The position numbers and the translations under genes were made by a program. Source: a virus (Duplodnaviria; Heunggongvirae; Uroviricota; Caudoviricetes). From it: DNA of 8,213 nucleotides. Within the stretch, counting starts at the first letter, position 1. Each line of letters begins with the position of its first letter. The DNA is taken from the IMG/VR virus record IMGVR_UViG_2675903661_000003, one strand, 5' to 3'. Shown here one piece after another: positions 76 to 8,213 of the stretch. The notes beneath the pieces were generated by a model that worked only from the letters and a program-made list of their open reading frames with translations, did no database searches and was not told the DNA's origin.

Positions 76-276
76 ATGTCATCGAAAAACCGGACCCGCA
101 GAACCACAACCCGCAATATCCGTTTCCCCAATCACATGATTGAACAGATCAACATCGCCCTTGAGCATAAAGGGTCCGGTAACTTTTCAGCGTGGGTTAT
201 TGAAGCCTGCCGGAGAAGGCTGGCAACAGATGCAACGCATCTGCGTCCGGCCAGCATGACAAATAACGAGAAATGA
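76..276 (+). CDS. Small ribbon-helix-helix-like DNA-binding protein (66 aa), putative transcriptional regulator
   Basis: ATG at 76 preceded by AAGGAA about 8 nt upstream; the ORF-track start at 16 is GTG with no obvious RBS. The stretch RNIRFPNHMIEQINIALEHKGSGNFSAWVIEACRRRL fits a beta-strand/helix/turn/helix layout typical of Arc/MetJ/CopG folds. Family assignment is from memory, not a search. Confidence 0.5.
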   Translation: MSSKNRTRRTTTRNIRFPNHMIEQINIALEHKGSGNFSAWVIEACRRRLATDATHLRPASMTNNEK

Positions 277-407: not shown

Positions 408-740
408 TCAGGGTGCAGAAGGACTAAAGATAAACGTTTTCTTCACGCCTTTACGCGGCCTGTCCTTCTCAAATCGCCATTTTGCCATCGCCTTTACAAC
501 CTGCTCATCAAACAGATGGTGTGGCTCTGAACGGATAAACTCAATTCGGGTGACAGTACCATCAGCACCAATATCAAACTTCACATCAACCCGTCCCTTT
601 ATATAATTTGCCGCTGCATAGGCCGGATATTGTGGTAATGCCTTAACCAACTGTCGGGGCATATCTGTTTTATGTTGCGTACAGCCCATAACCAGAGAAG
701 ACAACAAAATAATTAACGGAAGATTTCTTTTCATTTTCAT
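408..740 (-). CDS. TonB C-terminal-domain lipoprotein (moron-like accessory gene)
   Basis: ATG starts at 740 or 734; the track start at 749 is GTG. N-terminus MKMKRNLPLIILLSSLVMGC has a signal peptide and lipobox-like LVMGC. The C-terminal part (LPQYPAYAAANYIKGRVDVKFDIGADGTVTRIEFIRSEPHHLFDEQVVKAMAKWRFE) matches the TonB_C pattern. A GGGA motif lies upstream. Confidence 0.7.
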   Translation of the reverse strand: MKMKRNLPLIILLSSLVMGCTQHKTDMPRQLVKALPQYPAYAAANYIKGRVDVKFDIGADGTVTRIEFIRSEPHHLFDEQVVKAMAKWRFEKDRPRKGVKKTFIFSPSAP

Positions 741-759
741 TCCCGGCACAGATAAGAAT

Positions 760-800
760 AAGTCTTATTCTAACAATGCCACCCTGTCGGCCATCAATCC
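760..800 (-). promoter_or_regulatory. Candidate sigma70-type promoter for the TonB-like lipoprotein gene
   Basis: On the minus strand an extended -10-like TGTTAGAAT (plus coordinates about 767-775) sits about 25-30 nt upstream of the ATG at 740; the -35 is poor. The 750-1079 interval has no convincing ORF. Confidence 0.2.
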
Positions 801-1079
801 TCTGCTTAATGGCAACGACAATTATCCGACTTAAATCACAAATCAGACACATGACATAACAGGTCATGCGAGGTAACACATCGTCCGGTTTCTTCCACCA
901 TCGCACCGGACCAGCGACCATGAGGGGACAACGCCGCGCTCCGTTAACGCGGTAAACCCCGGTGTGTATCGTTTTTGATTATCCCCGCACACTCGCGCAG
1001 AGGAGTCTCCCTGTCGGGCTGCGGTCTCTGTTAATACGGGAATACGGCGACAATACCGCGCCATGGATAATAAGGTCGC

Positions 1080-1304
1080 TCAACACACTGGCTGTAATGC
1101 AGCGGATACCATGCGGCATTTAGCGGCATTCATCGTACACTCAACGGTTAGCTCTTCATTCGTGGCATTCACCTGAAAGGTCCGGGAGTGTAATTGCGTA
1201 CATTTACCACTGAACGAACCTTCAACAAGAACACGACCACGCTGCAAAATACGGAACGGAATTGTTCCCTGAAAAGGTTCTACGGTTACCCGTAATTTCT
1301 TCAT
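1080..1304 (-). CDS. Hypothetical 74-aa protein, translationally coupled to Rz
   Basis: Its ATG (1304-1302) overlaps the Rz stop (1303-1301) in an ATGA arrangement, with GGAGG 5 nt upstream. No signal peptide and no recognisable motif. Confidence 0.55.
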   Translation of the reverse strand: MKKLRVTVEPFQGTIPFRILQRGRVLVEGSFSGKCTQLHSRTFQVNATNEELTVECTMNAAKCRMVSAALQPVC

Positions 1305-1804
1305 GTATCCTCCGGATAATAAAAAGCCAGCTTAGTGCACTGAGTGCGTATATATTCCTGCGCCCCTTCCAACTGCTTCTGCATTGTCATCAACCGTTCT
1401 CTGAGGATGAAATAATCCCGTTCAGCGGTGTCTGCCAGTCGGGGGCCGGTTGCATTATCCACGCCGGAGGTGCCGGTGGCTTCACGCACGGTACCGGTGC
1501 AGGTGGCGTTGATCCGCAGGCGCTTACGACCAGCGGCAATATCAGCACGCAGAGTTTCATTTTCAGCTCTCGCATCGGCTAATTCCCTCGAGTATTTTGC
1601 ATCGAGCGCAGCAACATCACGCTGGCGCACCTGCATGTCAGTAATGGTGGCATTCGCCTGTTCCAGCTCTCTGGCTTTTTTATCGCGCTGCGCTTTGTAG
1701 GTGATGGCGTTATCGCGGTAATGATTCAGCCCCAGACTAAGCGCACCACAGACCACCAGCAGAATAACAGTAAACGCGGAAAGAATTCGGTTTATGCTCA
1801 CCAT
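1301..1804 (-). CDS. Rz: Rz-type i-spanin (inner-membrane spanin subunit)
   Basis: N-terminal TM helix followed by LNHYRDNAITYKAQRDK...DVAALDAKY...SGVDNA..PRLADTAERDYF.LRERL.TMQKQLEG, closely resembling lambda Rz as I recall it. ATG at 1804. Confidence 0.9.
   Translation of the reverse strand: MVSINRILSAFTVILLVVCGALSLGLNHYRDNAITYKAQRDKKARELEQANATITDMQVRQRDVAALDAKYSRELADARAENETLRADIAAGRKRLRINATCTGTVREATGTSGVDNATGPRLADTAERDYFILRERLMTMQKQLEGAQEYIRTQCTKLAFYYPEDT
1390..1575 (-). CDS. Rz1: Rz1-type o-spanin lipoprotein, embedded in Rz in the +1 frame
   Basis: Fully nested in Rz. Signal peptide with lipobox (LVVSAC) and a proline-rich mature region CVKPPAPPAWIMQPAPDWQTPLNGIIS nearly identical to the lambda Rz1 motif. 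Alternative start at 1560 (MKLCVL...). Confidence 0.85.
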   Translation of the reverse strand: MRELKMKLCVLILPLVVSACGSTPPAPVPCVKPPAPPAWIMQPAPDWQTPLNGIISSSENG

Positions 1805-1812
1805 GCCCCCTG

Positions 1813-2580
1813 TCAGAAATTGCAGATTATCAGCTCGCTGACACTGCTTGTCTTACCACGTGGTACAGTATAACGATGAGCAACATGATGAATATTCATC
1901 CCCTCAAACAATCGTCTCATTTCCTGCGTATCGTTCAGGGATATAATCATTTTGCCTTTTATTGTGCGGGCAAGTTCTGCCATGCGCTCATAATTGCAGA
2001 ATGAAAAATCAATGCCGTAACCACCATCCAACCAATACGGAGGATCGCAGTAAAACAGCGTTGTCGGGCGGTCATACCGTGCGATACAGACCTCCCAGTC
2101 AAGGTGTTCAATAGTTGCCCGCGCCAGCCGATCACGGGCTTCCTGCAATAACTGCTCTGTATTCCCGGGGATTATCTGCGGTCTGTGAGTTTTAACTCCA
2201 AATGCCCGACTGTATGCTCTTCCGCCATACGCGCACTTCTGGATAAAAAAGAAACGGACAGCCCGCTGGATATCCGTCATGTACTCCGTGTGCTGATTTA
2301 TCACCTCATTCCACATCTCACGACTGGCGAGCATCCACTGAAACTGGCGGGAAAATTCCTCCTGGTGGTACTTCACCACACGGTAGAGATTAACGATATC
2401 ACTGTTTATATCGTTGATGATTTCAGCGCAGCTCGGTTTTTTCATAAAGAACAGTGCCGCACCGCCACAGAACGGTTCCACATACAGAGTGTGCTCAGGA
2501 AATAACGGCAGAATATGTTTTGCCAGACGACGCTTCCCTCCTAACCACGGGAGAAACGGTTTTGCAGAGTTATTATTCAT
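1813..2580 (-). CDS. dam: Dam-family N6-adenine DNA methyltransferase (orphan, phage-encoded)
   Basis: PWLGGKRRL near the N-terminus, EPFCGGAALFF (AdoMet-binding motif I-like) and a DPPY catalytic motif. ATG at 2580 with GGTGGTG upstream. No adjacent restriction endonuclease candidate is visible. Confidence 0.85.
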   Translation of the reverse strand: MNNNSAKPFLPWLGGKRRLAKHILPLFPEHTLYVEPFCGGAALFFMKKPSCAEIINDINSDIVNLYRVVKYHQEEFSRQFQWMLASREMWNEVINQHTEYMTDIQRAVRFFFIQKCAYGGRAYSRAFGVKTHRPQIIPGNTEQLLQEARDRLARATIEHLDWEVCIARYDRPTTLFYCDPPYWLDGGYGIDFSFCNYERMAELARTIKGKMIISLNDTQEMRRLFEGMNIHHVAHRYTVPRGKTSSVSELIICNF

Positions 2581-2849
2581 TTCACCACCAGCGGATTTCC
2601 CGGATTAGAACCGCAATTGCCACAATGCGAATGGCAAATGCCGTTGCCCGAATAAATTCAGTACTCATCTGTTTAAATAAATTGTCGTCATCAGTCACTG
2701 TCACCCCACCAGCCCTGCCGAACTCAACGCCATCCAGGCTATGGAAAGAAAAAGAGCAACCATCATTAGCGAAAATGAAACGCCGACAATCACACAGATG
2801 GTCTTCGCCAGCGTTATGAGTTTGCCTGATATCATTAGACGCCACTCCA

Positions 2850-3416
2850 TCAATCCGTCTTTGTGATTTTTCCTTTGCCTGTATCAGCCAGGACAAAACC
2901 AATCAGCAGATTCGCTTCGTTTATCAACGTGCGAATTTTTGATACATGCGCGGCTTTAACCAGTTTCCATTCGTTTAACCCTGTACCAAACAGACTGGCA
3001 ATATTTTTATCCCGTTTCATGTCAGCGCATGCCTGGTTGAGTTCTTCCATCACGCTCATTTGACGAGGATTAACGACAAAACCCTTCGTCCAGTATTCAT
3101 AGAGAACATCGTCGCACTCTTCCTGATACTGGATAACCTTGTCGCGGATTCCGGGTTTTACTTTGTTGGGATTGATGGTTTGTAACCAGCCTGCAAGTTT
3201 TCGAAGTGGCAGGGACACCATATTGCGTCGTTTCCCGTCCTCAGCAACCATAACGATTTCCGTTATAGTTGACGCAAAACGCTGTCTTAACTTAGCCAAC
3301 TGTGATTGCCAGGCCAGCCCCATCCCCGCAACGACAGGTTTGGGAACGTATGGTTCGCCGTTATGGTTAACCACATAAAGAGAATCGCCGTGAAACGGCA
3401 CGGTTATCATATTCAT
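2850..3416 (-). CDS. Phage antirepressor-like protein (P22 AR N-terminal-domain-like)
   Basis: N-terminus MNMITVPFHGDSLYVVNHNGEPYVPKPVVAGMGLAW resembles the conserved start of P22_AR_N antirepressor-family proteins as I recall them. AAAGGAAA RBS about 7 nt upstream of the ATG at 3416. Family assignment unverified. Confidence 0.55.
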   Translation of the reverse strand: MNMITVPFHGDSLYVVNHNGEPYVPKPVVAGMGLAWQSQLAKLRQRFASTITEIVMVAEDGKRRNMVSLPLRKLAGWLQTINPNKVKPGIRDKVIQYQEECDDVLYEYWTKGFVVNPRQMSVMEELNQACADMKRDKNIASLFGTGLNEWKLVKAAHVSKIRTLINEANLLIGFVLADTGKGKITKTD

Positions 3417-3690
3417 CGGTTATTTCCTTTTAGTGATGAACCCTGCGCACAGGAATAACCAGCCCAAAGAGGGTTAACCAGACCACTGCCGGTTATCCAC
3501 CAGGGCTCATCCTGAAAGGTTCTTTGGTTTATTTACGCTTGTGCGAAGCGCAGAAATGCCAAAGGCACCATTACGGTGCCTCTGCGTGAAACAATGTTCC
3601 TGACTTTATTCACTTCGGTTTTGCCAGTTCGCAGGATTTCGTGTTATCCGTCCGCGTTGGCCAACGTCATTTTTCAGCAAAATATTCTGC

Positions 3691-4224
3691 TTATCTGTCG
3701 ATACCCCAGCACGCCAGCGCGCTCTCCTGGTCACGACGGGATACCTGACCATAACAATTATTTGAGCGGATACGGCAGTCCCTGCCACCGTCCTTAATCC
3801 ACCAGCGAATCGCTTCACACGCTCCCCTGCGATCGCCTGCATTAATTCGTTTATAAAACGTCGACGGGAAACACTTACCGGGGCCAATGTTATACGGGCA
3901 GAATGACGCGATCCCCGCTTTCTGGGGTTCAGTCAGTGGCACCCGGATGTTTTTCTCCACCCATGCCAGCGCCTTATCACGCTCAATGGCGTTAACCTGG
4001 TCGCATTTTTTCTTCGACAACTTCATGCCCGGGACGACAGGTTTGCCATCCACCCTGGTGGCACCACGACAAATGGTCCAGATACCCGCACCATCACGGT
4101 ATGCCGTGGTGTGGTTACCTTCTTTTTCATCCAGAAACTGGTCGAGAATATCAGGCGCAGGCGCCCCTGCGGCAATCAGCGCCAGAACGGCAGCCGACAG
4201 GCCGTATTTGATTTTGGTGTTCAT
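3691..4224 (-). CDS. R: GH24 (T4-lysozyme-like) endolysin with N-terminal SAR or signal sequence
   Basis: Catalytic E-x8-D-x5-T triad within EGNHTTAYRDGAGIWTICRGAT. N-terminal Gly/Ala-rich hydrophobic stretch YGLSAAVLALIAAGAPA is typical of signal-anchor-release endolysins that pair with pinholins. Weak RBS. Confidence 0.88.
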   Translation of the reverse strand: MNTKIKYGLSAAVLALIAAGAPAPDILDQFLDEKEGNHTTAYRDGAGIWTICRGATRVDGKPVVPGMKLSKKKCDQVNAIERDKALAWVEKNIRVPLTEPQKAGIASFCPYNIGPGKCFPSTFYKRINAGDRRGACEAIRWWIKDGGRDCRIRSNNCYGQVSRRDQESALACWGIDR

Positions 4225-4278
4225 GGATATTTATCAGGATTTATCGGTTCCGAATCCCTGGATATGTTAAGCCTTCAC

Positions 4279-4293
4279 CCCACCAGTGGTGGG
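4279..4293. promoter_or_regulatory. Palindromic operator-like site CCCACCA-G-TGGTGGG in the divergent intergenic region
   Basis: Perfect 7-bp inverted-repeat arms around a single central nucleotide, lying between the endolysin start (4224, minus) and the plus ORF start (4355). Confidence 0.2.
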
Positions 4294-4354
4294 CACTGGC
4301 GGGTTCTTAATTTCCCCGGATGATCGTGGATTACATTCCACCAGGAGATTACTT

Positions 4355-4987
4355 ATGCTTATCTATCCAGCGGCAGACCTCCGTTTACAGGGACGCAGAG
4401 CACAACCATGGGATAAAACAACCACTCATAAATATCGTCCCGGTCAATATTATGACTTTCGTAAACACCCGGAACTGATCGAGACACACCTTGAGGATTT
4501 TGTTGAATATTCAGACAGACAAGCGATTCAGACCTTTTTTTCTTTTGTTAAGTGGATCAACAGCAATTCATCTGCATTCGAGAGCACGGACTGCATGTTT
4601 TCAGGAACACCAAAGGTTGATGAATACGCCCCGGTATTTGGTTGCACCCATGCGTCATCTGGCCGCTTCGAATTTTTGTTTCGCGATACGAAAATAAACC
4701 AAAATGAGCGAGCTGTCGGATGGGTACTTAACAAACTATCGCTCTACCTTCAGAAAGAACGGCCCGATTTTTGTAAAGGAACCTTTGGCATCGTTCCCCT
4801 CATGACGGAATATACCGACTCCGGCGGTAACGAGTTCACCGGTTATCGTATTTGTGTCTATTTCGATGCTTACGGGAATGGAACAGAGGATACCTGGACT
4901 TCTCTCAACATCATGTTTGATGGCCTCATGAAAGCCACCAAAAGAATGAGCAATGAAACAATCACTGGCGAGATGCGTCCCCTTTAA
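4355..4987 (+). CDS. Hypothetical protein (210 aa), unknown function, opposite strand to the late operon
   Basis: ATG at 4355 with AGGAGA 6 nt upstream; the track ORF begins earlier at 4286 with no convincing start. It is the only long frame across 4355-4735. No TM segment and no motif I can name. A hairpin plus T8 lies about 100 nt downstream. Visibly more AT-rich than flanking phage genes. Confidence 0.5.
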   Translation: MLIYPAADLRLQGRRAQPWDKTTTHKYRPGQYYDFRKHPELIETHLEDFVEYSDRQAIQTFFSFVKWINSNSSAFESTDCMFSGTPKVDEYAPVFGCTHASSGRFEFLFRDTKINQNERAVGWVLNKLSLYLQKERPDFCKGTFGIVPLMTEYTDSGGNEFTGYRICVYFDAYGNGTEDTWTSLNIMFDGLMKATKRMSNETITGEMRPL

Positions 4988-5527
4988 AAAATTATCCAGA
5001 ATCTCACTATTTGCAGAGCGCTCTCTGTTTTTTTGAATACGGAAACACTCTGCGAGATTTCTGCTCATCACTTTCCGGCAATAATCGTAAAACGCCGCGA
5101 ACTGCTCATCACGGCGTTTTTTTTCACCTTCGGAAGGGATCTGCACCGACAGTTTTTTATTCAGTTCAACGACGCTGTTCTCCAGTTTTTCAATGCGTGA
5201 TTCGATATCATCTTTTTCTGACTGTATCGTGTTATATGCATTGTTAATTTGTATGGTATACCGCTCTTCTGAACAGAGGCGCTTTTCCGGCAACGGTTCG
5301 TTCCCTTCACATAACCCGGCAGCAATATCCATGAAAAACTGCTTCGCCTTCTTTTTCGCCTCAGCTTCGTAAAACTCCAGCGGGGCACCTTCAACACGAT
5401 CAAGATCAATCACCACATTTGGCAACAACAGTGACGTATACCCACCAGTTTCCAGCGCCACAGTAACAGTAATCTTATCCGGGTAAATATTTATCCCTTT
5501 AACAACCAGTTCGTATTGTTTATTCAT
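4736..5527 (-). CDS. Hypothetical protein (263 aa) with a central coiled-coil-like segment, immediately downstream of the holin
   Basis: ATG at 5527 lies 3 nt after the holin stop, with GGGAGAG upstream. It is the only long frame across 4988-5527. Contains a heptad-like segment IQSEKDDIESRIEKLENSVVELNKKL. The last 252 nt overlap the plus ORF antiparallel, so the true 3' end is uncertain. Confidence 0.5.
   Translation of the reverse strand: MNKQYELVVKGINIYPDKITVTVALETGGYTSLLLPNVVIDLDRVEGAPLEFYEAEAKKKAKQFFMDIAAGLCEGNEPLPEKRLCSEERYTIQINNAYNTIQSEKDDIESRIEKLENSVVELNKKLSVQIPSEGEKKRRDEQFAAFYDYCRKVMSRNLAECFRIQKNRERSANSEILDNFLKGTHLASDCFIAHSFGGFHEAIKHDVERSPGILCSIPVSIEIDTNTITGELVTAGVGIFRHEGNDAKGSFTKIGPFFLKVER
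5089..5124 (+). terminator. Candidate intrinsic terminator (hairpin plus T8) downstream of the plus ORF, inside the minus ORF
   Basis: AAAACGCCG, a loop of about 14 nt, then CGGCGTTTTTTTT. The A-tract on the other side gives a weaker reverse-orientation terminator. The loop is longer than canonical. Confidence 0.4.
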
Positions 5528-5530
5528 CGT

Positions 5531-5746
5531 CTACTCTCCCCGCGCCGCCTTACGCCGGTCTTCTTTAATTTTGAAATACAGGTTCGTCAGATATGTCAGC
5601 AGCCCAAACAGCAGACTCCCCAGCACGCCTATTGCCGCCCACTGAGACGGGGAAACCCTGTCCAGCAACTGCAGGAACCAGTAGCCCGTTCCCACCGCTG
5701 ACGTGGTGTATGACACACCTGTTGTGATTTTTTCCATCTGGTACAT
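5531..5746 (-). CDS. S: Class II holin / pinholin of the phage 21 S type, with dual-start motif
   Basis: [71 protein letters not shown] matches the S21 pinholin as I recall it. Two Met codons three codons apart (5746 and 5737) give the antiholin/holin dual start. The track start at 5764 is GTG. Confidence 0.85.
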
Positions 5747-5821
5747 ACCCCGTCTCCCGCACACGGAAGCTCACAACATGAAAAAGGCCAGCAGTACTTT
5801 ACTGATGGCCCTGACTCACCC

Positions 5822-6106
5822 TTACAGCATGGTGCCCGGTTCAGGTTGTGCTTCAGTCGCATCAACCACCGGTGATTCCGGTTGAATATCGCCGTTTTCT
5901 GAGGTGATATCTTCCGGTTGCGGTTCCGGCTCTGGCTGTTCGCCTGGCTGCTCTCCCAGTATCGTATCCAGAATCGCATCCACATCTGCTTCTATCTGCG
6001 CTTCAAATGTCTGGCGGACTTTCTGTTTCAGTGCTCCACGCACATCTTCTGAGCGCAGCGCGTCTTTCACTGCATCAGCAGTGACCAGGGGTTTTACTTC
6101 TGACAT
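5822..6106 (-). CDS. Hypothetical acidic protein (94 aa) with a Pro/Glu-rich tail
   Basis: ATG at 6106 (MSEVKPLVTADAVKDALRSEDVRGALKQ...). The longer track ORF from 6268 is GTG-initiated and would overlap the neighbouring ORF. C-terminal low-complexity EQPGEQPEPEPQPEDITSENGDIQPESP. Weak RBS. Confidence 0.45.
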   Translation of the reverse strand: MSEVKPLVTADAVKDALRSEDVRGALKQKVRQTFEAQIEADVDAILDTILGEQPGEQPEPEPQPEDITSENGDIQPESPVVDATEAQPEPGTML

Positions 6107-6131
6107 AGGGTTTTCTCGTTGAAAGGGGTTG

Positions 6132-6314
6132 TTAAGGAGTAATGGGCTCTTCGGGTTTGCTTCCGGCTGACTGACTGGCGCTGATTTTCTCAGCGGCCCT
6201 TTTATCAATCTGCCTGCGCCAGCAATCGCGCACTGCCCTGTACCCACCCGAAAGAAGATACAGCACACAGACCACCGTACAGAAGTACAGCATTAACTGG
6301 TTCAGAAATGTCAT
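6132..6314 (-). CDS. Small putative membrane protein (60 aa)
   Basis: ATG at 6314 with GGTGAGA upstream. A single predicted TM helix LMLYFCTVVCVLYLLSGG followed by a basic region. It conflicts with the GTG-extended version of the 5822 ORF, which is why the ATG-94-aa model was preferred there. Confidence 0.4.
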   Translation of the reverse strand: MTFLNQLMLYFCTVVCVLYLLSGGYRAVRDCWRRQIDKRAAEKISASQSAGSKPEEPITP

Positions 6315-6346
6315 GGTTTCTCACCGTGATAGTTGACATGATTTAC

Positions 6347-6381
6347 TTATTTTTGTAGAAAAACACCGAAGACTTCGGTGT
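6347..6381 (-). terminator. Rho-independent terminator downstream of the esterase gene
   Basis: Perfect inverted repeat ACACCGAAG-A-CTTCGGTGT (6363-6381), followed on the minus strand by TTTTCTACAAAAAT. Located between the esterase stop (6465) and the next minus-strand ORF (6314). Confidence 0.5.
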
Positions 6382-6464
6382 CATCATGGTCGTTTTACCA
6401 GCCGCCAGCATTCATGTAGTGGACAAAGTTCATCCCTTTCCTTCATTGCTGGCGGCCTTTTTTA

Positions 6465-8213
6465 TCATGCCGCGGCATCCGCGTTGTTCACTTCCACCTT
6501 CACACTGTCAATCAGCAACGTATATGTCGCCGCCTTTGATATGTCTGTCAGTTGCAGTTTGTCCGCCGCCCCTGATGCCGGAGATTTCACCAGTGTGAAC
6601 GGTGTACCCCGTTTCTCATCCAGTACCGGCGTCACCTGAATGCTGTTGTTTCCGGCAAACTCAAAAGCCAGTGTGTGCCATCCGTTATCAAAGACCCCGA
6701 ACGTATCCAGCTTCGCATTCTGCTTCTTGTGGTACATCGCGTTCAGGTTCGTCGCATCCGTCTGCAGGAAGAAGGACATCAGCATGTCGTTGCCTTCCTC
6801 TGACAGCGTCACTCCCTCCGGCAGGGACGACAACTGCCAGTAAATACCCAGGGCAAACTGATTCGGCACCAGTGCGCCCGGCACCTTAAACCGTACGCTC
6901 ACACGTCCGCCTTTCTTCAGCAACTCTGCCCCCTGCCCGGCGGCATCATGCTCCAGAAACCAGATGTGGCTTTCCGGTTTGTTCAGTTGCAGGGCCTTAC
7001 CACCGGTGGCACCCTCATCACTGACCACAGCCTCAGCGATGTTTTTATTAACACTGTCTCCGCTCGCCGGTTTGTGATAATAGCGCCAGCCCTGTGATGC
7101 CAGGTCTTCGCCGGACGCCAGCAGACTCATCAGGGTTCGGTTACTGACCGGGGCTTCCGGCTCTCTCTCCGGGCCTTCACCGGAAGGTCCGGTGGGCTTC
7201 ACCGTATCAGGCTGTTTTCCGGTAATGAATTCAGCGGTTCTCCCGGCATGCACCAGAATCGCCGTTGCCAGACGGTCGGAAATAATCCCACGGCGAGCCC
7301 ATGAACTGAAATGGCTGGCCCTGTCTGCTGATGTCCAGGTCTTCTGGTCATTACGCCACTTTGAACCGTAATAACCGACGGTTTCCAGGTCCGGGTCTTC
7401 TGCCGGGTTATTGGTCTGCACATTCGCACCATTCTCATCCGTCATTAACGGTACAAAGAAAATGTTCTGCGACTCCTTCCCCTTATACCCTCCGTATACT
7501 GATGCATACCCTTCCGCATGACGCTGCTTCCAGAAATACGTTGTGTCCCCGCAAATCCACGGTACCGCTGATGCGCTGCCTCCTGTGCTCTGTGATGCCT
7601 GACCGGCAAGCTCCGTTCTGAACTGATTCACCATCGCACTAAACAGCCCCGGATGCTGCGCATGCGTCCCCACTGCCGCATCACCTTCTCCCTGCATCCA
7701 CACCACCGCAAGCAGACGGTTTTTCGGGTTCTTCGCCAGTGCGGCTTTAGTCCGGCTCACCAAATCCTGATACAGCGGCTTACCCACACCCCAGCGCAGT
7801 GAATTTTCCGATGCACCGGCTGATTCGCTGTATGTGCCGTCTGCACCCGTTGTGAATGCCGAAGCACCACGGCAGCACGGAACCAGCAGAATGCCCGCAT
7901 TCGCCGGTATAAACGGCAGCAGTTTTTTGGCGATATGCAGCCCCTGCCCCACGGTTCCGTACTGCCCCTTTGACAGGTCCGCTTTCGGATGGTTAAGACG
8001 GCTCATGTCCTGCACATCATGCAGACAATGGTCCGCCGGAATAATGTCGTTATACTTACAGGCGGCACCGCCCGGTGTCACCGTACTGCGGCGCGCCAGC
8101 TGCTTAATACGCGGGTCCGGACGGTCATATGTCTCCGGCAGCGGAAGGCCTTCACCATACGACATGCCGTTTGACTGCCCTGCCAGAACCACAACAAAGT
8201 AATACTCCGGGTC
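6465..8213 (-). CDS. nanS: NanS-p-like 9-O-acetyl sialic acid esterase (SGNH/SASA-type hydrolase), 5' end truncated by the window edge
   Basis: VVLAGQSNG is a block-I SGNH-hydrolase motif. The frame stays open upstream of the track's GTG at 8192 to the window end (DPEYYFVVVLAGQSN), so the N-terminus lies outside the window. Size, motif and position just upstream of the holin fit the prophage esterases of Stx-type lambdoid phages as I recall them. Confidence 0.75.
   Translation of the reverse strand, partial: DPEYYFVVVLAGQSNGMSYGEGLPLPETYDRPDPRIKQLARRSTVTPGGAACKYNDIIPADHCLHDVQDMSRLNHPKADLSKGQYGTVGQGLHIAKKLLPFIPANAGILLVPCCRGASAFTTGADGTYSESAGASENSLRWGVGKPLYQDLVSRTKAALAKNPKNRLLAVVWMQGEGDAAVGTHAQHPGLFSAMVNQFRTELAGQASQSTGGSASAVPWICGDTTYFWKQRHAEGYASVYGGYKGKESQNIFFVPLMTDENGANVQTNNPAEDPDLETVGYYGSKWRNDQKTWTSADRASHFSSWARRGIISDRLATAILVHAGRTAEFITGKQPDTVKPTGPSGEGPEREPEAPVSNRTLMSLLASGEDLASQGWRYYHKPASGDSVNKNIAEAVVSDEGATGGKALQLNKPESHIWFLEHDAAGQGAELLKKGGRVSVRFKVPGALVPNQFALGIYWQLSSLPEGVTLSEEGNDMLMSFFLQTDATNLNAMYHKKQNAKLDTFGVFDNGWHTLAFEFAGNNSIQVTPVLDEKRGTPFTLVKSPASGAADKLQLTDISKAATYTLLIDSVKVEVNNADAAA

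Follow-up and report, generated by a model that had tools for sequence, protein, structure and literature searches.

Siderophores, vitamin B12, many phages, T1 and phi80 among them, group B colicins and Trojan-horse antibiotics such as cefiderocol all enter the cell through the TonB system. In the complexes of TonB with FhuA, BtuB and FoxA, the TonB box lies as a parallel strand on the last strand (beta-3) of the TonB domain, and the pairing is mainly through backbone hydrogen bonds (PMC6699858, PMC11658791). Phages are known to act on this system from the periplasmic side. Llp of T5 and Cor of phi80, N15 and HK022 are small lipoproteins of the inner leaflet of the outer membrane that act on one TonB-dependent transporter, FhuA, and block the phage's own receptor. 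The periplasmic domain of TonB itself, when overexpressed, inhibits TonB-dependent iron import (Howard et al. 2001, as outlined in a summary passage of PMC9841981). As for Bor of lambda, it is the product of a lipoprotein cargo gene located between Rz and cos and expressed in the lysogen. In this work, we describe a lipoprotein gene on the minus strand of an 8,213-nucleotide (nt) stretch of a Caudoviricetes record, IMGVR_UViG_2675903661_000003, hereafter the window, whose product consists of a lipoprotein signal, a short tether and a TonB C-terminal domain (TonB_C). It behaves as prophage cargo, and its best-supported mechanism, to which we give a probability of roughly 40%, is that of an outer-membrane-anchored, unenergised TonB mimic competing for TonB boxes.

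A lipoprotein with a TonB C-terminal domain

The following features define the gene and its product; residue numbers are those of the 108-residue product, and TonB numbers are those of Escherichia coli TonB.

408–734, minus strand: coding sequence of the TonB_C lipoprotein, 327 bp, 108 residues, stop codon at 408–410 (list of open reading frames (ORFs); same length as the RefSeq entry)
423–659, minus strand: TonB C-terminal domain, residues 26–104 (Pfam, TIGRFAM, PDB sequence match, structure model with Foldseek)
681–734, minus strand: signal peptide (residues 1–17) and lipobox LVMG-C, codon of Cys18 at 681–683 (lipoprotein rule)
741–744, minus strand: Shine-Dalgarno-like GGGA, 6 nt before the ATG at 734 (direct sequence reading)

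The ORF extends over 408–749, with a GTG at 749 as its outermost start, and an ATG at 740 is also in frame. The ATG at 734 is the likely start, because GGGA is found 6 nt upstream and the resulting product has the 108 residues of the RefSeq protein, which is named 'TonB family protein'. In an alignment of the upstream regions, the variant of this gene carried by phage 21 keeps AGGA at the place of GGGA. Between the window gene and the phage 21 variant, the ratio of nonsynonymous to synonymous substitution rates (dN/dS) is 0.12, and this codon comparison shows purifying selection, hence real selection on the gene.

The N-terminus of the protein reads MKRNLPLIILLSSLVMG up to the predicted cleavage site and CTQHKTDM after it, with a basic n-region, a hydrophobic core of 11 residues, the lipobox Cys18 and a Thr at position +2. 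The rule that we used asks for a positively charged n-region, then a hydrophobic core, and places the lipobox [LVI]-x-[GAS]-C no later than residue 35. All three are present in the window protein and in 21 of the 24 small homologues checked, and the lipobox Cys is invariant (13 of 13 aligned homologues), so that the secreted lipoprotein with signal peptide and lipobox announced in the original prediction is borne out. In E. coli, the +2 rule is the ground for expecting outer-membrane sorting of lipoproteins without Asp at that position. None of the 21 lipobox-bearing homologues has Asp at +2, and the window lipoprotein, given its Thr, would be expected to be sorted to the outer membrane.

The same prediction had likened the mature part to the TonB C-terminal domain, and this likeness was found again both with profiles and with structures. 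Residues 36–103 match Pfam TonB_C (PF03544) with 56 bits, for a cut-off of 24.6 (E 5.5e-15), and the protein matches TIGR01352 with 56.5 bits, for a cut-off of 27.1; TonB_C and TonB_2 are its only Pfam matches. The best PDB sequence matches obtained with phmmer are the TonB C-terminal domains of Salmonella and E. coli, and residues 26–104 align without gaps to E. coli TonB 153–231 (E ~1e-16, 39% identity), window residue i thus corresponding to TonB residue i+127. An AlphaFold2 model built with 13 family members as input has predicted local distance difference test (pLDDT) values above 90 over residues 25–105. The model comprises strands at 28–30, 47–55, 61–70 and 94–103 and helices at 38–42 and 76–84. 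Its top Foldseek matches are 1u07, 2gsk_B and 2grx_C, with root-mean-square deviations (rmsd) of 1.1–1.3 Å and target-normalised TM-scores of 0.88–0.91. TonB from the BtuB complex (2gsk_B) and TonB from the FhuA complex (2grx_C) each reach 0.91.

Over a wider set of TonB structures (1u07, 1xx3, 2gsk, 2grx, 8rd6), the fold agrees within 1.1–1.5 Å and the 79 gaplessly aligned residues are 39–42% identical. The YP motif is shared, and so are the aromatic residues, TonB Y163, F180, F202, W213, Y215 and F230 corresponding to Y36, F53, F75, W86, F88 and F103 of the window protein. The terminal beta-strand, residues 94–103, is predicted at the very place where TonB pairs with TonB boxes. The protein ends five residues further on and has no TonB C-terminal extension, the last eight residues of TonB being absent. 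Other differences from TonB are Tyr at the position of R166, Leu at that of Q160, Lys at that of R158 and, after beta-2, SEPHHLFD at the place of SAKPANMFE.

The protein is no energy transducer. TonB equivalog models of NCBIfam score at most 73 bits, for a cut-off of 315, and only over their last ~80 profile positions. The architecture of a transducer is also ruled out: instead of an uncleaved N-terminal anchor and a proline-rich spacer, there is a cleavable lipoprotein signal, followed by a tether of ~8–10 residues between Cys18 and the domain. As the membrane anchor and spacer of TonB are absent, the window protein should not couple to ExbB/ExbD, and, unlike TonB, it would be lipid-anchored from the outer-membrane side.

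Among the 4933 TonB_C proteins of an exhaustive representative search, only a handful are full-length and similar in size to the window protein. These are lipoproteins of 105–130 residues from Klebsiella, Raoultella and Salmonella, with 44–52% identity, annotated merely as 'TonB family protein' or hypothetical. They and the phage protein have in common a signal peptide, a lipobox, a short tether, a single TonB_C domain and an overall length of ~105–130 residues. A neighbour-joining tree built on the 79-residue domain unites the phage proteins and the small lipoproteins in one clade, apart from true TonB. They share the motifs YPxYA, SEPxHLFD and KWRFE..KP.KG. As a family they differ from TonB by an invariant Tyr at R166, by SEPxHLFD for SA(K/Q)PANMFE and, ahead of the last strand, by KG-x-KT for GSG-x-VN; at position 160 the members differ among themselves.

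Unlike the phage genes, the Klebsiella and Raoultella homologues are found in a conserved non-prophage locus of the chromosome, next to lacZ-lacI and a Rick_17kDa-type lipoprotein gene, and have a strong Fur box just 5' of the start codon.

7975–7995 of the Klebsiella sp. R445 locus: Fur box (consensus match)
5975–5995 of the Raoultella locus: Fur box (consensus match)

Compared with the 7-1-7 consensus TGATAATnATTATCA, these boxes match at 15 of 15 (TGATAATTATTATCA) and 14 of 15 positions. They are conserved while their flanks diverge, and no other site scores that high in either locus (16 kb and 12 kb). Because of this box, the chromosomal relatives are probably switched on together with TonB-dependent uptake genes under iron starvation.

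A separable prophage cargo gene

The TonB_C gene is located downstream of Rz/Rz1, and in every carrier examined it sits between the lysis cassette and cos/terminase.

1301–1804, minus strand: Rz i-spanin (Pfam Phage_lysis, 1.5e-49)
1390–1575, minus strand: Rz1 o-spanin, embedded in Rz (Pfam Rz1, 1.7e-21)
1080–1304, minus strand: 74-residue ORF, its ATG overlapping the Rz stop codon (ATGA; ORF list and sequence reading)
76–276, plus strand: YlcI/YnfO-family (DUF3950) gene, convergent to the TonB_C gene (Pfam and NCBIfam)

The 74-residue ORF and ~330 nt of non-coding DNA separate it from the spanin genes. Three diverged variants of the gene, of 99%, 71% and 40% identity, are found in this interval, and the gene is accompanied by two different packaging modules. 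Conversely, an E. coli prophage, FHI_NMBU_10, is 97% identical over window positions 884–8213 and then passes directly to the terminase genes, without the TonB_C gene; homology to the gene-less prophages begins at 884, a mosaic breakpoint. As the gene is present or absent among near-identical late regions and goes with two packaging modules, the genomic comparison shows it to behave as a separable cargo gene, or moron. One study had already flagged a homologue as such (PMC9928086).

The sequence itself is not new. It is annotated in well over a thousand genomes, and the curated phage 21 genome names the TonB C-terminal domain. The window variant is present in 417 of 5426 complete E. coli genomes, many of them O157, O145, O111 and O103 strains, all copies being chromosomal and annotated 'TonB family protein'. 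It was also found in the Shiga toxin (Stx) 1a phages JLK-2012 and Lys8385Vzw and within an Stx2a prophage of RM10466. The gene order in the latter is stx2AB, SASA esterase, holin, lysozyme, lysis protein, TonB family protein, ylcI, HNH endonuclease and terminase genes. The ylcI-like neighbour is common to JLK-2012, Lys8385Vzw and RM10466. A variant of 71% identity is present in 1225 of the 5426 genomes, UTI89 included; the overlap between the two sets of carriers was not counted. This variant is also that of classical phage 21 (CPT_21_73, 'TonB C-terminal domain protein'), of ev017 and of Perceval, a prophage of LF82, and a 40% variant occurs in a Klebsiella phage. The carriers thus include Shiga-toxin phages, a classical phage and prophages of uropathogenic and adherent-invasive E. 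coli. Our full-text literature search yielded no functional study of, or experiment on, the TonB_C lipoprotein.

The original prediction had placed the gene just past the spanins, where lambda has bor. The interval is indeed the same, but bor is not replaced: both genes occur side by side in phage 21 and in Perceval. Like bor, the TonB_C gene is a lipoprotein cargo gene between Rz and cos, and it would be expressed in the lysogen, as its 71% homologue is; unlike bor, it gives no Bor match in Pfam, its product being unrelated in sequence, and bor follows directly after Rz on the opposite strand. These two genomes also encode the iron/manganese importer sitABCD (12968–16417 in phage 21; PMC9928086 Table 1 for Perceval) alongside bor and the TonB_C lipoprotein. 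No sit genes are annotated in the regions of the RM10466 Stx-type prophage that were examined.

Upstream of the coding sequence, the sequence elements that may bear on expression are the following.

767–775, minus strand: candidate extended -10 element TGtTAGAAT, TG at 775–774 and TAGAAT at 772–767 (direct sequence reading)
755–771, minus strand: perfect 8-1-8 palindrome AGAATAAG-A-CTTATTCT over the -10 element and the expected transcription start (sequence reading and alignment)
848–870, minus strand: terminator-like hairpin upstream of the TonB_C gene (pattern scan; fold energy z = -0.9)
329–364: G+C-rich hairpin between the convergent TonB_C and ylcI-like genes (fold, z = -0.9; no T-run on either strand)

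The extended -10 element, which the original prediction had pointed out, was confirmed, and transcription is predicted to begin near position 760. It is embedded in an island of 16 nt, ATTGTyAGAATAAGAC, that is invariant between the window and the phage 21/Perceval variant while the upstream flanks have diverged. A lone -35-like hexamer, TTGATG at 797–792, is not conserved; as it lies 19 nt from the -10 element, a generic promoter scan missed the latter. Expression in the lysogen had also been suggested. For the 71% homologue in Perceval, published RNA-seq data support transcription from an internal promoter in the lysogen. This homologue, LF82_160 (PERCE_65, 'TonB fragment'), was listed among the morons, 8-fold above the local prophage background, and log2 RNA-seq values in the lysogen were 5.0–6.6 for it, 2.3–3.7 for Rz and 2.3–4.3 for the small terminase subunit (PMC9928086). 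For the window variant, the conserved -10 element makes the same expression a reasonable expectation. In macrophages, the LF82 homologue does not change significantly, whereas bor has a log2 fold change of 7.1, that is, ~140-fold (PMC9928086).

The palindrome could be the operator of a regulator. The right arm falls within 13 nt that are inserted in the Stx-phage variant alone and have no counterpart in phage 21. Control of the phage gene by Fur was considered and rejected. The palindrome agrees with the Fur consensus at 13 of 19 positions, which is chance level, as seven positions on the two strands of the window reach 13 or more and 23 reach 12 or more; the phage 21 variant has no such site. 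This chance-level score, the missing phage 21 site and the variant-specific right arm led us to drop Fur control as evidence. The hairpins at 329–364 and 848–870 are weak candidates for flanking terminators, neither being more stable than shuffled sequence; the mosaic breakpoint at about 884 falls just outside the second one.

A proposed unpowered TonB decoy and its alternatives

The original prediction proposed that a periplasmic TonB-box-binding decoy could exclude TonB-dependent phages or colicins, or alter iron uptake. This interpretation is partly supported. In the mechanism that we favour, the cargo gene would be transcribed in the lysogen and its product cleaved and lipidated at Cys18, and the short tether would hold the domain beneath the inner leaflet of the outer membrane. 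The exposed last strand of the model could then bind TonB boxes by beta-augmentation, as TonB does. The lipoprotein would transmit no energy and would therefore be a competitor of TonB on the periplasmic side of TonB-dependent transporters; the TonB boxes of group B colicins on their way in may be contested as well. Phages and bacteriocins that depend on TonB would then be expected to enter less readily, and uptake of siderophores and vitamin B12 would suffer somewhat. The sorting to the outer membrane, the binding, the competition and any phenotype are inferred.

Several lines of evidence are consistent with such a decoy. As TonB-box binding operates mainly through the backbone, tolerance of the side-chain differences in the window domain is expected. 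The substitutions Q160L, Q160K and R158L leave TonB functional and rescue its interaction with FhuA and colicin M whose TonB boxes are mutated (PMC11658791), and Leu and Lys at the 160 and 158 positions are therefore compatible with TonB-box recognition. Llp and Cor provide the precedent of phage lipoproteins acting at this place, and overexpressed periplasmic TonB fragments or TonB-box peptides that of an unenergised domain, or its ligand, as a competitive inhibitor (in the passage of PMC9841981 on these inhibitors). The fragments are soluble laboratory constructs, whereas the window protein appears to be a natural, lipid-anchored and diverged version. It is tempting to speculate that this is phage lipoprotein cargo directed at TonB-dependent transport, which by analogy would place it in function nearest to Llp and Cor. 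It is not a homologue of theirs, since no Llp or Cor match was obtained in Pfam, PHROGs, PDB or BFVD. The FhuA:Llp entry 8A60 is absent among the PDB matches listed, and BFVD contains no viral structural relative of the model at E <= 0.001. Whereas Llp and Cor block a single receptor, the reach of a TonB mimic would in principle extend to every TonB-dependent transporter. If it does bind TonB boxes, it would represent a new mechanism of exclusion or bacteriocin protection aimed at a whole class of transporters; we came across no natural protein inhibitor or modulator described as copying the receptor-binding domain of TonB on the outer-membrane side. The sitABCD importer is not known to need TonB. 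A prophage that dampens TonB-dependent uptake while bringing another route of metal import would make sense. A more general version, in which the lipoprotein captures TonB boxes at the membrane ahead of TonB and acts as a brake on all TonB-dependent import, is in our view somewhat doubtful. If true, cells would be broadly shielded from TonB-dependent phages, from group B colicins and microcins and possibly from antibiotics conjugated to siderophores, and the Fur-regulated chromosomal relatives would represent a so far unrecognised host regulator of the TonB system.

A number of observations weigh against the decoy. A constitutive, general TonB inhibitor is expected to be costly, yet variants of the gene are present in 417 and 1225 of the 5426 genomes, including UTI89 and Shiga toxin-producing E. 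coli, pathogens that presumably depend on siderophore uptake. The lipoprotein is closer in sequence to the chromosomal lipoprotein family than to TonB, and the Fur box of the Klebsiella and Raoultella relatives suggests a role alongside iron uptake, not against it, which would suit a helper better than an inhibitor. The invariant Tyr at R166 and the SEPxHLFD motif may point to a partner other than the TonB box. There is no sign of Cor/Llp-style self-exclusion, the receptor-binding ends of the J proteins of the carriers being of the lambda/434 type and varied, and the window protein has no match to known defence-system models in PADLOC. As for J, self-exclusion found no support when its last 249 residues, taken from phage 21 and from a gene-carrying Stx2a prophage, were compared with all phage records. 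Both are of the lambda/434 type, they differ from each other (57–63% identity), and the matches listed include none to phi80, N15, HK022 or T1.

A first alternative is that the protein helps or modulates TonB-dependent uptake: when iron is limiting, its domain would dock on transporters or periplasmic binding proteins, where it might keep hold of released TonB boxes or arrange the transporters. Nutrient acquisition would thereby improve, and the gene would serve as fitness or virulence cargo. The Fur box with 15/15 and 14/15 matches directly upstream of the Klebsiella and Raoultella homologues, the sitABCD importer co-carried in phage 21 and Perceval, and the frequency of the gene in pathogens, which speaks against a costly inhibitor, all argue in this direction. 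We nevertheless regard a helper as rather unlikely: no mechanism is known by which an unenergised TonB domain would assist transport, a convincing Fur box is missing from the phage variants, expression of the LF82 homologue is unchanged in macrophages (PMC9928086) and the soluble periplasmic domain of TonB is reported to be inhibitory, according to the summary in PMC9841981. Alternatively, the domain might bind peptidoglycan or another envelope protein instead of TonB boxes and work as a tether. The interval is that of the lipoprotein gene bor, and the Tyr at R166 and the SEPxHLFD and KG-x-KT segments permit a different partner. Affinity for peptidoglycan has been reported for the TonB C-terminal domain, and the domain III fold of TolA, which is related, is found among the weak Foldseek matches, at ranks 18–25. 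However, the best structural matches by far are TonB domains in the TonB-box-bound state, Pfam reports no peptidoglycan-binding family, and the neighbouring genes give no pointer to an envelope structure. Such a tether is improbable in our opinion; it would stiffen the link between the outer membrane and the cell wall or alter vesicle release, serum resistance or stress resistance, in line with the action of other lipoprotein cargo of the interval.

Database labels suggest yet another origin, as a lysis or late-function protein or as the decaying fragment of a captured tonB. The protein matches phrog_1267, labelled 'Rz-like spanin' in the category lysis, at 2.6e-42; its gene adjoins the lysis cassette; and older database entries are named 'TonB fragment' or 'partial tonB-like'. 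Nevertheless, genuine Rz and Rz1 genes are intact upstream, and the fold is that of a globular TonB_C domain, not of a short, proline-rich o-spanin or a coiled-coil i-spanin. The protein also carries an export signal of its own, a signal peptide with lipobox that the family conserves. This origin is further at odds with the dN/dS value of 0.12, with an identity of only 39% to host TonB, with the grouping with the lipoprotein family and with the transcription of the homologue while the Rz and terminase genes are silent (PMC9928086). Intact spanins, fold, export signal, selection, tree position and transcription together largely refute this origin, which we consider highly improbable.

The TonB decoy is a specific hypothesis, cheap to test, about a very common gene. 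Should the phage protein do nothing of the kind, its Fur-regulated relatives would still add a so far unstudied component to the iron-starvation response of Klebsiella and Raoultella.

As a separate matter, the 'Rz-like spanin' label of phrog_1267 looks like an annotation error, and it will spread to the annotations of phage genomes.

Other genes of the window

The lysis cassette of the window is split, as two genes sit between the endolysin and Rz.

1813–2580: D12-class (Dam-like) DNA adenine methyltransferase
2850–3416: protein with a P22 antirepressor N-domain
3691–4224: endolysin
4286–4987, plus strand: 233-residue ORF, overlapping the DUF1327 gene
4736–5527, minus strand: 263-residue DUF1327 protein, between holin and lysozyme
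5531–5764: holin
6465–8192: SASA-family sialate O-acetylesterase with a DUF6645 domain

The 74-residue ORF next to Rz matches just positions 100–172 of the 291-position phrog_2571, and it may be what is left of a longer gene, with its translation still coupled to that of Rz. The 233-residue ORF has no family match and may be spurious; neither it nor the DUF1327 protein matches known defence-system models. No complete E. coli genome of the collection contains the whole window as one block. The esterase gene carries the label yjhS / DUF1737 protein in JLK-2012, and its counterpart in RM10466 comes next after stx2AB and iraM. This gene order makes it probable that the window covers the late region of a lambdoid prophage of the Stx type, stx following shortly past its right end.

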